A stretch of DNA of 64,000 bases, taken from the NCBI RefSeq assembly GCF_003334315.1, contig NZ_QOWR01000004.1; one strand, 5' to 3'. Origin of the DNA: Escherichia coli. GTDB lineage: Bacteria > Pseudomonadota > Gammaproteobacteria > Enterobacterales > Enterobacteriaceae. Positions 4,747 to 9,431 of this stretch are shown piece after piece (positions within the stretch are counted from its first letter, which is position 1; every line of letters begins with the position of its first letter). A program made the position numbers and the translations under genes. The notes beneath the pieces were generated by a model that had not been told where the DNA came from, did not search any database, and was given only the letters and a program-made list of their open reading frames with translations.

Positions 4747-5397
4747 TCAGAAAATGCGCTCCTGATGCACCCATACCGCTGCTTCCACGCGAGACTTGAG
4801 CTTCATTTTCTTCAGCATGTGCTTGACGTGCACTTTTACTGTGCTTTCGGTGATATCCAGGCGGCGGGCAATCATCTTGTTCGGCAAACCCTGGGCAATC
4901 AGCTTGAGAATATCGCGCTCGCGTGGGGTTAACTGGTTAACATCGCGCTCAGTAGTGGCACGGTTAGCGCGCAAGCTGGCGGCCAGAACAGGCGTTAATG
5001 CTTCGCTTAATACCATTTCGCCAGCAGCTGCCTGATGCAATGCTTTCAGCAGATCTTCCGGTTCCATATCTTTTAACAGATAGCCATCCGCGCCGCGTTT
5101 CAGTGCGGTGACCACATCTTCTTCATGGTTAGAGACGCTGAATACCACAATGCGCCCTGAGAGGGACTTTTCGCGCAGTTTATCCAGCGTTTCCAGACCG
5201 TTCATGCCGGGCATATTGAGATCTAACAGGATCAGATCGGGATCAAGAGACTCCGCCAGTTCAATACCCTGTTCGCCATTACTCGCTTCGCCAACCACGG
5301 TGATATCTGGTGCCATACTGATAAGCTGTTTTACGCCAGTTCGCAGCATCGGGTGATCGTCAATCAGCAGGATAGTAGCCGGTTCCTGATTACTCAT
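4747..5397 (-). CDS. narL: nitrate/nitrite response regulator NarL
   Basis: 216 codons starting [25 protein letters not shown]..., receiver plus LuxR-type HTH; track ORF is 5'-extended; start overlaps narX stop by 8 bp. Confidence 0.96.
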
Positions 5398-7186
5398 GGG
5401 TATCTCCTTGGACGTCTGTGAAAGTTTTTTCGGGAATAAAGGTGACCACCACTTCGGTGCCACCTGATTCACGACGGCGGACGCGGCAATCGCCTCGTAA
5501 ACTTTGCGCACGGTCGCGCATTATTATCATGCCGTAGTGATTGCTGCGGATGGCATTTTCAGGCACGCCGCAGCCGTTATCCTGGACGGTCAGTTTGACC
5601 TGATTATCGTTTTGCGCCACCGTCACCACGACCTCACTCGCTTGCGAATGTTTGAGGGCGTTACTTAATGCCTCACGGGCAATTTGCAACAAGTGGATTG
5701 CCTGATGTGAAGGCACCAGACGAGGCGGCAATTGATAATCCAGCTTCACCGGGAAGCCAAATTTGGCGCTGTACTCTTCGCAACTCGCTTCCAGCGCCGG
5801 ACGTAATCCAGGCTCGGTGAGCTGCAAGCGGAATGTGGTGAGCAATTCACGCAACTGCGCCCAGGATGCATTCAGTTCGTTACGGATCTGACTTAACAGT
5901 TCGCGGCTGCTTTCTGGCAGCGCATCGCCCTGCATCTGTAAACAACTCACCTGCATCTTCATGCAAGAGAGAGATTGGGCAATAGAATCATGCAGTTCGC
6001 GCGCAATGGTGGCACGCTCTTCCATCACGATCAACTGTTGCTGACGTTCCTGATGCCGATCCAGCGCCAGCGTGGCGGTGAGTTGTTCAACCAGGGTATC
6101 CACCAGTTGTTGTTGATCATGGCTAAGATGACGCCCCTGCGGTAGGGTCGCCAGCAAAATACCGTACTGCGTATGTGAGTCAGCCAGCCGCCACTTCAGG
6201 GTTGTGCCGCGATCGCCAACGGGTAATACGCCGCGCGGGCAGAGCTGGCAGCCTTTATCATCACAAGTCATATCTGGCTGGCAGGTAAACTCCTGATGAT
6301 TCTCTTCATCATCAGTGTCATACACCCGCAATTCGATATCACGTAGCAGGGTTAAATTCTGTAAGCCGTTGAGTACAGGTGACAGGCGTTCACACAGCGG
6401 GGCGCGGGAATGCAAACGGCGGTTAGCCTGCCATAAAAAAGAGAGGATCTGATTTTTATGCTCCAGCCCGGCGGTTTTCTCCTGAACCCGCTGCTCAAGT
6501 ACGGCATAACTTTCGGCCAGTTCTGCAGACATATTGTTCAATGCAGTTCCAAGCATCGCCATTTCGTTGCGCCCGCTGATGTTCGCGCGTTGGGTAAAAT
6601 CGCGATGACTGACGGCACTCGCCATTGCCAGCAGTTGCCGCCACGGTTGTAGCAGTCGCGCCCGCAACCAGATAATAGTGAACACCAGTAAAAGTGCCAT
6701 AAATACCGCCATTACCCGATGGACCAGTACCACTGTCTCAATGCGCATTTCCGTGGTGCGGTCAAAACCAGATACCAGCTGATCAAGCCCGGCAACAAAC
6801 TGGCTGACATCCGCTGACACCGTTTCGCGGTTTTGTGCACGCATCAGTGCAGGGATCAGTTCATTACGCCAGTAATCTTGTAAACCCTGTAATTGCGCCA
6901 GTTGTCCGTCTCGTTCTGCTGCTCGAGTCAACTCGGCGCTAAATGCCGTTTGTTCCATCTCTTTAATTAAGGGCTTGTCTTTCTCGCTTAATGGCACTGC
7001 TGCCAACAGACGGTAACTTTGCATGCGCAGCGATCCCGCTTTGTTGATCGCATGGGCGCTGCCCTGAACGCCTTGCACCAGCCAGCCAGAAACCGCCATC
7101 CCTGCCAGTCCAATAGCAGTAGAAAGCAACACAATAAGCGCAACCTGATTAACCAGGGTGAGCGGAGAGAGACAACGTTTAAGCAT
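5390..7186 (-). CDS. narX: nitrate/nitrite sensor histidine kinase NarX
   Basis: 598-aa [24 protein letters not shown]..., two TM segments, HAMP and histidine kinase regions. Confidence 0.96.
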
Positions 7187-7282
7187 GTAAACCTCTTCCT
7201 TCAGGCTTTAAATGAGCAATAACCTTAATGAATGTGACGATACATTCTGGAATGGCAGTATTCTCGGCTATTGGCTGAAGTA

Positions 7283-7309
7283 TACCCATACCCGGAAAGA
7301 GTTACTCCT
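7283..7309 (+). promoter_or_regulatory. NarL heptamer-like motifs (TACCCAT, TACTCCT) upstream of narK
   Basis: matches to the NarL heptamer consensus TACYYMT at 7283-7289 and 7303-7309. Confidence 0.5.
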
Positions 7310-7451
7310 TATTTGCCGTGTGGTTAGTCGCTTTACATCGGTAAGGGTAGGGATTTTACAGCACCGTGAAAAATCTCATAATTTTTATGAAATCACTGTA
7401 CTCACTATGGGTAATGATAAATATCAATGATAGATAAAGTTATCTTATCGT

Positions 7452-7465
7452 TTGATTTACATCAA
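7452..7465 (+). promoter_or_regulatory. FNR box TTGAT-N4-ATCAA in narK promoter
   Basis: perfect FNR consensus TTGATttacATCAA about 60 bp upstream of the narK ATG. Confidence 0.8.
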
Positions 7466-7524
7466 ATTGCCTTTAGCTCCAGACACTAAGGTGGCAGACA
7501 TCGAAACGAGTATCAGAGGTGTCT

Positions 7525-8916
7525 ATGAGTCACTCATCCGCCCCCGAAAGGGCTACTGGAGCTGTCATTACAGATTGGCGACCGGAAGATCCTGCGTTCT
7601 GGCAACAACGCGGTCAACGTATTGCCAGCCGCAACCTGTGGATTTCCGTTCCCTGTCTGCTGCTGGCGTTTTGCGTATGGATGTTGTTCAGCGCTGTTGC
7701 GGTGAACTTACCGAAAGTCGGTTTTAATTTTACGACCGATCAGCTATTTATGTTGACTGCGCTGCCTTCGGTTTCTGGCGCGTTATTACGTGTTCCATAC
7801 TCCTTTATGGTTCCTATCTTCGGTGGTCGTCGCTGGACGGCGTTCAGCACCGGTATTCTGATTATTCCTTGCGTCTGGCTGGGTTTTGCCGTGCAGGATA
7901 CCTCCACGCCTTATAGCGTCTTCATCATCATCTCTCTGCTATGCGGCTTTGCTGGCGCGAACTTCGCATCCAGTATGGCAAACATCAGCTTCTTCTTTCC
8001 GAAACAGAAGCAGGGTGGCGCGCTGGGTCTGAATGGTGGTCTGGGAAACATGGGCGTCAGCGTCATGCAGTTGGTTGCTCCGCTGGTGGTATCACTGTCG
8101 ATTTTCGCAGTATTTGGTAGCCAGGGCGTCAAACAGCCGGATGGGACTGAGCTGTATCTGGCGAATGCGTCCTGGATATGGGTGCCGTTCCTTGCCATCT
8201 TCACCATTGCGGCGTGGTTTGGCATGAACGATCTTGCTACCTCGAAAGCCTCCATCAAGGAGCAGTTGCCGGTACTCAAACGGGGTCATCTGTGGATTAT
8301 GAGCCTGCTGTATCTGGCAACCTTCGGCTCCTTCATCGGCTTCTCCGCGGGCTTTGCAATGCTGTCAAAAACGCAGTTCCCGGATGTTCAGATTCTGCAA
8401 TACGCTTTCTTCGGGCCGTTTATTGGTGCGCTGGCGCGTTCTGCAGGTGGTGCATTATCTGACCGTCTGGGCGGAACTCGTGTCACGCTGGTGAACTTTA
8501 TTCTGATGGCGATTTTCAGCGGCCTGCTGTTCCTGACCTTACCGACTGACGGGCAGGGCGGAAGCTTCATGGCGTTCTTCGCGGTCTTCCTGGCGCTGTT
8601 CCTGACAGCTGGGCTGGGTAGTGGTTCCACTTTCCAGATGATTTCAGTGATCTTCCGTAAACTGACAATGGATCGCGTGAAAGCAGAAGGGGGTTCTGAC
8701 GAACGTGCGATGCGTGAAGCGGCAACCGACACGGCGGCGGCGCTGGGTTTCATCTCTGCGATTGGCGCGATTGGTGGCTTCTTTATCCCGAAAGCGTTTG
8801 GTAGCTCGCTGGCATTAACGGGTTCGCCAGTCGGCGCAATGAAGGTATTTTTGATTTTCTATATCGCCTGCGTAGTGATTACCTGGGCGGTATATGGTCG
8901 GCATTCTAAAAAATAA
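7525..8916 (+). CDS. narK: nitrate/nitrite antiporter NarK (MFS)
   Basis: 463 codons from ATG 7525 (MSHSSAPERATGAVITDWRPEDPAFWQQRG...); 12-TM MFS-like. Confidence 0.96.
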   Translation: MSHSSAPERATGAVITDWRPEDPAFWQQRGQRIASRNLWISVPCLLLAFCVWMLFSAVAVNLPKVGFNFTTDQLFMLTALPSVSGALLRVPYSFMVPIFGGRRWTAFSTGILIIPCVWLGFAVQDTSTPYSVFIIISLLCGFAGANFASSMANISFFFPKQKQGGALGLNGGLGNMGVSVMQLVAPLVVSLSIFAVFGSQGVKQPDGTELYLANASWIWVPFLAIFTIAAWFGMNDLATSKASIKEQLPVLKRGHLWIMSLLYLATFGSFIGFSAGFAMLSKTQFPDVQILQYAFFGPFIGALARSAGGALSDRLGGTRVTLVNFILMAIFSGLLFLTLPTDGQGGSFMAFFAVFLALFLTAGLGSGSTFQMISVIFRKLTMDRVKAEGGSDERAMREAATDTAAALGFISAIGAIGGFFIPKAFGSSLALTGSPVGAMKVFLIFYIACVVITWAVYGRHSKK

Positions 8917-9062
8917 ACCGTTACTCGTCATACTTCGGGTTACATGTGCTGCGGCTGCGTTCATTCACCCCAGTCACTTACTTTAGTAAGCTCCTGGGAT
9001 TCATTCACTTGCCGCCTTCCTGTAAACCGAATTATATAGAGTAAAATATTTGATTATCCTTT

Positions 9063-9088
9063 GCGCGGCATGATGTCGCGCTTTTTTT
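9063..9088 (+). terminator. narK rho-independent terminator candidate
   Basis: GC stem GCGCGGCA..TGTCGCGC followed by T7 run. Confidence 0.6.
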
Positions 9089-9163
9089 ATGCGTTATTTA
9101 GTTACAACATACTAATGTTATATGGTTTATTTCGCCGGATTTCATTAAGAGCCATTAAAATGT

Positions 9164-9193
9164 TACCCATGGGGAATACTCCTTAATACCCAT
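9164..9193 (+). promoter_or_regulatory. cluster of NarL heptamers (TACCCAT, TACTCCT, TACCCAT) in narG upstream region
   Basis: three consensus heptamers within 30 bp, about 190-220 bp upstream of the FNR box. Confidence 0.6.
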
Positions 9194-9326
9194 CTGCATA
9201 AAAATCTTAATAGTTTAAATAACTACAGGTATAAAACGTCTTAATTTACAGTATGTTATGTGGTGGCTGTTAATTATCCTAAAGGGGTATCTTAGGAATT
9301 TACTTTATTTTTCATCCCCATCACTC

Positions 9327-9340
9327 TTGATCGTTATCAA
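9327..9340 (+). promoter_or_regulatory. FNR box TTGAT-N4-ATCAA in narG promoter
   Basis: perfect FNR consensus TTGATcgttATCAA about 100 bp upstream of narG ATG. Confidence 0.8.
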
Positions 9341-9431
9341 TTCCCACGCTGTTTCAGAGCGTTACCTTGCCCTTAAACATTAGCAATGTCGATTTATCAG
9401 AGGGCCGACAGGCTCCCACAGGAGAAAACCG

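Follow-up and report, generated by a model that had tools for sequence, protein, structure and literature searches.

The nitrate respiration locus of this E. coli almost certainly carries a pair of neighbouring class II promoters, FNR-dependent and regulated together, one for narK and one for narGHJI. The window, by which we mean the whole stretch of 64,000 nucleotides analysed, is a segment of the E. coli chromosome with the gene order ychN-ychO-narLX-narK-narGHJI-tyrTV-purU. Many E. coli chromosomes match its nar region at 100% identity, and their annotation (narX on the minus strand, narK and narG on the plus strand) bears out the identity and orientation that a sequence-only reading of the window had assigned to narK and narG. 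Compared with MG1655, there are 7 SNPs across positions 7187-9461, and the FNR boxes and consensus heptamers are free of them. The two SNPs in the narK promoter region (7392 and 7479) lie outside every listed site, and the only 2 in the narG upstream control region (9159 and 9253) hit no site.

FNR boxes and core promoters

The FNR sites, the predicted core promoters and the narK coding sequence are the following.

7452-7465, plus strand: perfect narK FNR box TTGATttacATCAA (= TTGATTTACATCAA), centre 7458.5, at -41.5; Myers Table S6 site 1277107, score 17.06
9327-9340, plus strand: perfect narG FNR box TTGATcgttATCAA (= TTGATCGTTATCAA), centre 9333.5, at -41.5; Myers Table S6 site 1278982
7414-7427, plus strand: second narK FNR-like site ATGATAAATATCAA, one mismatch, centre -79.5
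7487-7500, plus strand: predicted narK core promoter, -10-like TAAGGT at 7487-7492, start at about 7500, placed from the published -41.5 and the sequence
9363-9375, plus strand: predicted narG core promoter, -10 TACCTT at 9363-9368, start at about 9375; start codon at 9432
7525-8916, plus strand: narK CDS (nitrate/nitrite antiporter), start codon at 7525

On re-scan, the two nar boxes, claimed earlier as exact matches to the FNR consensus, agree with it base for base. The 64 kb window has 3 copies of the pattern TTGATN4ATCAA for 0.09 expected, and a count of 3 is reached in 0 of 100 shuffles. The third perfect box (17357-17370) lies within purU, where published ChIP data have no FNR peak, so that a perfect motif alone is no proof of function. 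The narK and narG boxes are the same 14-mers as the narX/narK and narG sites in Table S6 of Myers et al. 2013, with the same spacing of 1875 bp, and the narK score is the highest among the Table S6 entries retrieved. The K-12 FNR ChIP-seq peaks at 1,277,082 and 1,279,003 fall at window positions 7427 and 9348, and the expression-ratio table gives 0.068 for narK and 0.020 for narG, both “Activated” by FNR (Myers 2013).

The inverted repeats that CRP and FNR bind are related, which leaves room for a reading in which the boxes are bound chiefly by another CRP/FNR-family protein, or in which FNR represses there. We find this exceedingly improbable: TTGAT-N4-ATCAA is the FNR consensus, whereas that of CRP is TGTGA-N6-TCACA, and besides the FNR peaks themselves, in the fnr comparison the two operons drop 15- to 50-fold. 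The -41.5 location of the box centres is, moreover, the activating position of class II promoters.

In K-12, the published location of the narK and the narGHJI FNR sites is -41.5, counted from the start site. Because the same 14-mers are published at that location, the distance of about 41 bp between box centre and transcription start, by which the sequence-only reading had proposed to check its boxes, holds for K-12. In the window, boxes at -41.5 put the starts at about 7500 (narK) and 9375 (narG). It is the literature that supplies the occupancy by FNR, the -41.5 locations, the footprints of NarL and the need for IHF, and we infer the exact starts and -10 elements of this strain. For start sites and footprints, the analysis draws on Myers 2013, Katsir 2015 and the MotifAdjuster supplement. 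The narG -10 sits 29.5 bp from the centre of the FNR box, as in the published class II spacing rule, and has a conservation of 0.96. The footprint names -89 and -195 are consistent with a narG start at 9375, and an anaerobic sigma70 ChIP peak (1279025) maps to window position 9370. A generic sigma70 consensus scan of the window misses both promoters, as expected for activator-dependent promoters without a -35. A generic sigma70 match, TTTACA-16-CATAAT, is found at 7355-7382.

NarL heptamer arrays and their conservation

Positions of the NarL heptamers in the narK control region are relative to the predicted narK start.

7283-7289, plus strand: TACCCAT, -214; listed NarL site for b1223
7303-7309, plus strand: TACTCCT, -194; listed NarL site
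7320-7326, minus strand: TAACCAC, -177; listed, at least 1 consensus mismatch
7337-7343, minus strand: TACCGAT, -160; listed, at least 1 consensus mismatch
7343-7349, minus strand: TACCCTT, -154; listed, at least 1 consensus mismatch
7399-7405, plus strand: proximal TACTCAC, -98; conserved (TACTCA block)
7407-7413, minus strand: proximal TACCCAT, -90
7417-7423, minus strand: proximal TATTTAT, -80
7430-7436, minus strand: proximal TATCTAT, -67

The NarL sites of the narG control region are these.

9164-9170, plus strand: TACCCAT, -208; listed site
9177-9183, plus strand: TACTCCT, -195; listed site
9187-9193, plus strand: TACCCAT, -185; listed site
9271-9277: proximal TAATTAT, -101
9283-9289, minus strand: proximal TACCCCT, -89; high-affinity region with a published footprint, conservation 0.88
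9293-9299: proximal TAGGAAT, -79
9315-9321: proximal TCCCCAT, -57

The five TACYYMT heptamers at 7283, 7303, 9164, 9177 and 9187 are exact and all on the plus strand, as had been reported, and all five are present in a RegulonDB-derived curated NarL list (MotifAdjuster supplement). The window has 45 such heptamers where about 31 are expected, so that a single one means little. Groups of two or more within 30 bp number 4 for 0.37 expected, and the three-heptamer group upstream of narG, the one such group in the window, appears in 0 of 500 dinucleotide-preserving shuffles. The sequence-only reading described heptamer clusters ahead of both genes; the narG trio is indeed beyond chance, but the narK “cluster” is a pair of heptamers 20 bp apart, weaker on its own, which draws its support from conservation and the literature. 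That reading had its listed sites right but omitted the narG -89 NarL region and the rest of the proximal NarL sites, as well as IHF and the FNR-like site at narK -79.5.

A 7-2-7 pair of heptamers is needed for NarP and is not required for NarL action. A pattern scan finds no good 7-2-7 NarL dimer site at the narK and narG promoters; the best candidate, TTATCCTAAAGGGGTA (9274-9289), has 2 mismatches and the remainder at least 3, in agreement with literature that reports narG without 7-2-7 sites. Published narG NarL-P footprints are at -89 and -195, with FNR and IHF required, and the distal narG centres at -208, -195 and -185 match the published “-195 region” footprint. No match to the IHF consensus WATCAANNNNTTR with at most 1 mismatch lies in the interval that separates the distal NarL group from the proximal one. 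For IHF, the literature reports a requirement at narG and ChIP-chip enrichment at the narX/narK site.

A DNA-pattern scan of genome contigs gives 34 narX-narK-narG loci, with no narU paralogues. We align 28 (narK) and 22 (narG) sequences from about 8 enterobacterial genera (Escherichia, Citrobacter, Salmonella, Kluyvera, Raoultella, Enterobacter, Silvania and Intestinirhabdus). The FNR half-sites are 100% conserved at both promoters, for regional means of 0.67 (narK) and 0.55 (narG), and even the spacer of the narG box has a conservation of 0.99 (22 sequences). The narK -214 heptamer, invariant at 7/7 positions in the 28 sequences, lies within an invariant 14-bp block, AGTATACCCATACC (7279-7292), and the variants of the -194 heptamer read from the alignment, TACCCCT and TACCTCT, stay inside TACYYMT. 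At narG, the -195, -185 and -89 heptamers have conservations of 0.80-0.88, and CCTTAATACC (9181-9190), in the distal cluster, is 98% conserved; the -208 heptamer reaches only 0.42. The conserved set thus consists of both FNR boxes, narK -214, -194 and -98, and narG -195, -185 and -89. Escherichia-specific or poorly conserved are narG -208, the narK -160 and -154 heptamers (7337-7349, 0.43) and the narK -79.5 FNR-like site, whose right half has a conservation of 0.44. Since neither narG -208 nor narK -79.5 is conserved outside Escherichia, their contributions may be lineage-specific. The alignments indicate purifying selection on the narK and narG motifs across genera.

These results bear on whether the motifs could be chance matches in AT-rich intergenic DNA with no regulatory role. 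Single TACYYMT heptamers are common, and purU has a perfect box inside it where FNR has no ChIP peak. We nevertheless give this reading practically no credence, given the expected number of perfect boxes per window, the shuffles for the heptamer trio, and boxes that stay invariant over about 8 genera while their flanks have diverged; there are also published ChIP-seq, footprint and expression data on identical sequences. The ChIP-seq and expression data and the alignment have already refuted it.

A different question is which gene the distal narK heptamers (7283-7309) serve. They lie upstream of narX, just 97-123 bp from its start codon, and a conserved TATTCTC (7259-7265) that adjoins them reads GAGAATA, which is -10-like, on the narX strand. 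Both this element and the invariant 7279-7292 are nearer to narX than to narK, and the label of the site in the Myers table is “narX/narK”. The heptamers could then act on the divergent narXL promoter, alone or besides narK. We regard this as unlikely, as the curated list gives these heptamers to narK (b1223), and narG has a similar distal cluster at about -200 without any divergent gene. Searching the literature on the narX promoter and on ModE brought up neither a narX start site nor narX-specific data. The AGTATACCCATACC block and TATTCTC together might form a shared NarL-dependent element, for narXL autoregulation and narK activation.

NarS, an ERIC repeat and TerD between narK and narG

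Three further features, all of them already known, lie between the two promoters.

8905-9088, plus strand: NarS sRNA, from the narK 3' UTR; MG1655 narS 1279337-1279520, offset 1,270,432
8920-9046, minus strand: ERIC/IRU dispersed repeat inside the narK 3' UTR; elements of this family are intergenic, multi-copy and about 127 bp long, with a central inverted repeat
9095-9117, minus strand: TerD, Tus-binding replication terminator CATTAGTATGTTGTAACTAAATA (Tus binding predicted); 16/16 identity to TerB positions 6-21 (strand 9117->9095)

NarS ends in a terminator stem (9063-9081) followed by a T-run. In Salmonella, expression of narK and NarS needs NarL and FNR (PMC7038943). A search with Rfam gives no match to a NarS model here, and the only match, V_AS5, is sub-threshold (30.9 bits for a gathering score of 96); the ERIC repeat accounts for this weak match. 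An E. coli genome carries a median of 10 repeats of this kind (range 3-18). The copy at the narK 3' UTR is polymorphic between strains, being found in about 45% of records, and the 5 other Escherichia sequences that were aligned lack it. It is an E. coli-specific “insertion” that lengthens NarS. The repeat at 8920-9046 matches 20/22 positions of the ERIC2 primer sequence.

The core block of the putative TerD (9098-9113) is 97% conserved in the 22 sequences. The conserved core of Ter sites comprises a G/C at position 6 and positions 8-18, and their polarity suits the side of the fork trap on which they lie. Here the non-permissive (C6) end points toward higher coordinates, which fits arrest of counter-clockwise forks. 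A literature search with the block sequence itself leads to a Ter site, and with that identification we rejected the block as a NarL, ModE, ArcA, Fis or Nac site or a promoter. We also rejected it as an 8-codon ORF, as it has no synonymous variation and its ATG is unconserved. TerD is about 50 bp upstream of the distal narG NarL array, a position kept in all aligned genera. Tus occupancy or fork arrest at TerD might be coupled to the architecture of the narG control region. Taken jointly, this coupling and, separately, the shared narXL/narK NarL element make a quite improbable proposal.

A dual-signal mechanism and what it adds

For narK and narG as FNR-dependent promoters, the best explanation is the following mechanism, which nothing in the data contradicts. 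Without oxygen, dimeric [4Fe-4S]-FNR would occupy the TTGAT-N4-ATCAA box at -41.5, overlapping the -35 region, and bring RNA polymerase to weak promoters with the -10 elements TAAGGT (narK) and TACCTT (narG) and no usable -35. When nitrate is present, NarX would phosphorylate NarL, and NarL-P would fill arrays of TACYYMT-type heptamers, at each promoter a proximal one from about -57 to -101 and a distal one from about -185 to -214. An IHF bend between the groups would let the distal array reach the promoter. Because FNR (no oxygen) and NarL-P (nitrate) are both needed, high transcription would be limited to anaerobic conditions with nitrate. The literature reports co-dependence on FNR and NarL, and a need for multiple upstream NarL sites in nitrate induction. 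The fit to known anaerobic, nitrate-dependent control, put forward in the earlier reading, is upheld by published FNR ChIP and expression data and NarL footprints on the same sequences.

Among known systems, the K-12 narGHJI promoter is the same locus, with identical FNR box, -208, -195, -185 and -89 heptamers and -10, and no functional difference. At the K-12 narK promoter the FNR box is likewise identical, and the window has each of the ten listed NarL heptamers. The narK promoter is said to have been studied by Bonnefoy and DeMoss in 1992, Kolesnikow et al. in 1992, and Li, Kustu and Stewart in 1994. The nirB promoter (FNR at -41.5, one NarL/NarP 7-2-7 at -69.5) resembles narK and narG in being class II FNR and boosted by NarL, but there a single 7-2-7 dimer site displaces IHF and Fis (anti-repression), whereas narG and narK have dispersed heptamer arrays to about -200 and IHF acting positively. 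The yeaR and ogt promoters share the NarL heptamer recognition, with 7-2-7 sites at -43.5 or -44.5/-77.5; they are FNR-independent, in contrast to narG and narK, where both FNR and NarL are needed.

The narK and narG sites are real, conserved and experimentally mapped before, in K-12, so that the finding is correct but ordinary and already known, and the sequence-only reading rightly called it not novel. Its value is in annotation, as it establishes, for narK and narGHJI in the window, what they are, which way they run and where their promoters lie. Aligning across genera refines this a little by showing which of the listed sites are under selection. From sequence, one recovers a classical dual-signal promoter in which FNR senses oxygen and NarL senses nitrate.

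FNR boxes and transcription starts

The promoters discussed here lie in a common E. coli locus: many complete E. coli chromosomes, B/BLR(DE3) and strain C among them, match bases 7150-9450 at 100% identity, and the region is found in 5417/5426 genomes. The RefSeq annotation of one matching chromosome gives the gene order kdsA-ldr-chaABC-ychN-ychO-narL(-)-narX(-)-narK(+)-narGHJI(+)-rtT/tyrTV(-)-purU(-)-ychJ. Across 7187-9461 there are seven SNPs relative to MG1655 (7392, 7479, 7708, 7722, 9095, 9159 and 9253), none of them inside the FNR boxes or the consensus NarL heptamers.

Features of the window
narX, minus strand, start codon ending at 7186
narK, 7525-8916, plus strand
narS (b4813), 8905-9088, plus strand, mapped from the MG1655 annotation 1279337-1279520
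replication terminator TerD, a putative Tus-binding site, CATTAGTATGTTGTAACTAAATA, 9095-9117, minus strand, between the narK/NarS terminator and the distal narG NarL cluster
narG, plus strand, start at 9432
third perfect FNR box, TTGATAAGCATCAA, 17357-17370, within the purU coding sequence

The sequence-only reading had placed perfect FNR boxes at 7452-7465 and 9327-9340 and TACYYMT clusters at 7283-7309 and 9164-9193, and all its coordinates were exact on re-check. The two boxes are among three TTGATN4ATCAA matches in 64 kb, against 0.09 expected (0/100 shuffles gave three). They are identical to the sites in Table S6 of Myers et al. 2013 (PMC3688515), TTGATTTACATCAA at 1277107 (narX/narK, PatSer score 17.06) and TTGATCGTTATCAA at 1278982 (narG, PatSer 14.78), both with a ChIP peak. 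This identity, together with the shared 1875-bp spacing (9327-7452), sets the offset between window and Myers K-12 coordinates at 1,269,655, and the FNR ChIP-seq peak centres of their Table 1 (1,277,082 and 1,279,003) then fall at 7427 and 9348; the same table reports increased anaerobic sigma70 occupancy and expression for both operons. The purU box is listed in Table S6 as a predicted site without an FNR ChIP-seq peak and without nucleoid-protein enrichment, so a perfect match by itself is no proof of function. Its published K-12 coordinate, 1287368, exceeds the value predicted from the narK/narG offset by 356 bp, and thus the window is 356 bp shorter than MG1655 between narG and purU; the deficit lies between 9340 and 17357 and probably reflects a tyrT-tyrV region with two rtT repeats (178 bp each) fewer.

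For both operons the top-scoring FNR site is at -41.5, with starts from EcoCyc and Kim et al. (Myers Table 1, PMC3688515), which puts the starts at about 7500 (narK) and 9375 (narG); negative site names are centres relative to these. Starts about 41 bp downstream of the box centres, as the sequence-only reading expected, are therefore what is published for K-12, whose DNA is identical at both boxes. For the window's strain, we infer the exact starts and the -10 hexamers. Three independent cross-checks support 9375. A start there centres the narG consensus heptamers at -208, -195, -185 and -89, and NarL-P DNase footprints have their centres in a high-affinity region at -89 and a lower-affinity one at -195, with some protection around -150 (Katsir et al. 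2015, PMC4549865). The narG hexamer TACCTT (9363-9368) starts 29.5 bp from the FNR box centre, the spacing quoted as optimal for class II by Hothersall et al. 2022. Finally, Myers et al. 2013 (PMC3688515) give an anaerobic sigma70 ChIP peak whose position, 1279025, corresponds to 9370 in the window.

The best sigma70-consensus match of the region is elsewhere, TTTACA-16-CATAAT at 7355-7382 (+), matching 10/12 positions. At the same place lies the anaerobic sigma70 ChIP peak that was published under the label narK (1277023, window 7368), 130 bp upstream of the FNR-dependent narK start. Another sigma70 peak (1278712, window 9057) lies on the NarS terminator and TerD area.

NarL heptamers and their conservation

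TACYYMT has 45 matches in the window against about 31 expected, and alone it is weak evidence, but its clustering is not: four groups of at least two matches within 30 bp are found against 0.37 expected, and the narG trio at 9164, 9177 and 9187 was reproduced in 0/500 dinucleotide-preserving shuffles. The groups include a pair in the chaA-chaB spacer (1535(+)/1554(-), plus 1460(-)) and an overlapping pair TACTCATGGGTA (5391/5396, spanning 5391-5402) at the junction of the narX stop and narL start, both probably incidental. The MotifAdjuster supplement (PMC2718512), whose NarL set derives from RegulonDB/CoryneRegNet with Li, Kustu & Stewart 1994 as source, lists ten heptamers for narK (b1223) and at least seven for narG (b1224), all of which we mapped to the window.

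NarL sites listed in PMC2718512
narK: -214, -194, -177, -160, -154, -103 (rejected by MotifAdjuster), -98, -90, -80, -67
narG: -208, -195, -101, -89, -79, -57, plus an odd entry at -393

The five heptamers picked out from sequence are all recognised NarL sites on this curated list. Only consensus-perfect distal sites had been picked out; the proximal arrays, including the footprinted high-affinity -89 region, were missed. Our scan found no good 7-2-7 pair at either promoter, in agreement with Katsir et al. 2015 (PMC4549865). The -393 entry is TACTTTA in TCACTTACTTTAGTAAG (8976-8982), within the central inverted repeat of an ERIC element, and is missing from strains without that repeat; as an annotation it seems doubtful.

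Searching genome contigs with a degenerate DNA pattern based on the NarK nitrate-signature motif gave 34 loci, in Escherichia (albertii, whittamii, cryptic clades), Citrobacter, Salmonella, Kluyvera, Raoultella, Enterobacter, Silvania and Intestinirhabdus; all 34 are narX-narK-narG and none narU-narZ. We aligned 28 narX-narK and 22 narK-narG spacers, with mean identity to the window base of 0.67 and 0.55, respectively.

Conservation of promoter elements
both FNR boxes: half-site positions 10/10 invariant
narG FNR spacer CGTT: 0.99
narG -10 TACCTT: 0.96
narG -195/-185 pair: conserved block CCTTAATACC, 0.98
narG -89 heptamer: 0.88
narG -208 heptamer: 0.42, not conserved
narK -214 heptamer: inside the 14-bp block AGTATACCCATACC, 100% invariant
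narK -194 heptamer: 0.84, variants read off the alignment remain TACYYMT
narK TACTCA(C) at -98: 0.92-0.98
narK -160/-154 sites: 0.43, not conserved
narK -79.5 FNR-like site, right half: 0.44, not conserved

When conserved blocks are listed without bias, the FNR boxes and the best of the heptamers first noticed come up again, plus a few elements that had gone unmentioned. A 21-nt block in the narG 5' UTR, AGCAATGTCGATTTATCAGAG (9382-9402, about +8 to +28), is 99% conserved across genera next to variable first transcribed bases just upstream. The minimum free energy fold has only a small hairpin, +3 to +15, spanning the start of the block; possible roles of the block are an RNA element or a downstream site for a protein. 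In the narX-narK spacer, conserved TATTCTC (7259-7265; GAGAATA on the narX strand) could be the narX -10, and conserved GTGAAAAA (7366-7373, about -130 from the narK start) could be part of the IHF region.

NarS, an ERIC repeat and TerD between narK and narG

The sRNA NarS derives from the narK 3' UTR, is processed by RNase E, depends on Hfq and represses nirC; an insertion close to the narK stop codon makes it longer in E. coli than in Salmonella (PMC7038943). Its end in the window is a terminator at 9063-9090; an Rfam 15 search of the region returned no family matching NarS. What lengthens the E. coli form is an ERIC/IRU dispersed repeat at 8920-9046, in the narK 3' UTR and inside the NarS precursor; this repeat also accounts for a weak Rfam V_AS5 match at 8924-9046 (-). 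The median number of ERIC copies in an E. coli genome is 10. A copy at least 99% identical to 8920-9046, which we take to be the narK 3' UTR copy itself, is present in only about 45% of complete E. coli genome records. The narK-narG alignment contains E. albertii, two E. coli and two cryptic-clade Escherichia sequences without this copy. In three Citrobacter, ERIC has inserted independently a few bp from there and in the opposite orientation, which suggests an insertion hot spot.

The most conserved unassigned element of the spacer, outside FNR and coding sequence, is TTAGTTACAACATACT (9098-9113, 97% conserved), absent from the sequence-only reading. A full-text literature search with this block led to Tus-Ter papers. 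The minus strand from 9117 to 9095 equals TerB, AATAAGTATGTTGTAACTAAAGT, at positions 6-21. Position 23 of the site is G in MG1655, which gives the TerD sequence. Relative to TerA (1,339,771) the site is origin-proximal by about 61 kb, and it is oriented as expected of a barrier to counter-clockwise forks. The 16-bp Ter core is at the same position in Escherichia, Citrobacter, Salmonella, Kluyvera, Silvania and the unclassified Enterobacteriaceae MGYG-110, and is not conserved there in the aligned Raoultella planticola.

A common promoter architecture

According to what is known of the Nar regulon and to the cited papers, both promoters are class II FNR-dependent. Anaerobically, FNR at -41.5 touches RNA polymerase and stands in for a -35 element; with nitrate, activated NarX phosphorylates NarL, and NarL-P occupies multiple low-symmetry heptamers in one proximal and one distal group, with IHF bending between the groups reportedly needed at narG. 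In Salmonella, narK mRNA and NarS are almost gone in fnr or narL mutants and not in narP mutants (PMC7038943). Motif presence, statistics, identity to published sites and conservation are our own basis here; binding, starts and IHF dependence come from the literature. The original interpretation of anaerobic, nitrate-dependent control is supported and was incomplete, and its view that this control is not novel holds: these are textbook E. coli regulatory elements, and the promoter elements, NarS, the ERIC repeat and TerD are all already known. narK and narG share one architecture, with FNR at -41.5, proximal NarL sites at about -60 to -100 and distal sites at about -185 to -214.
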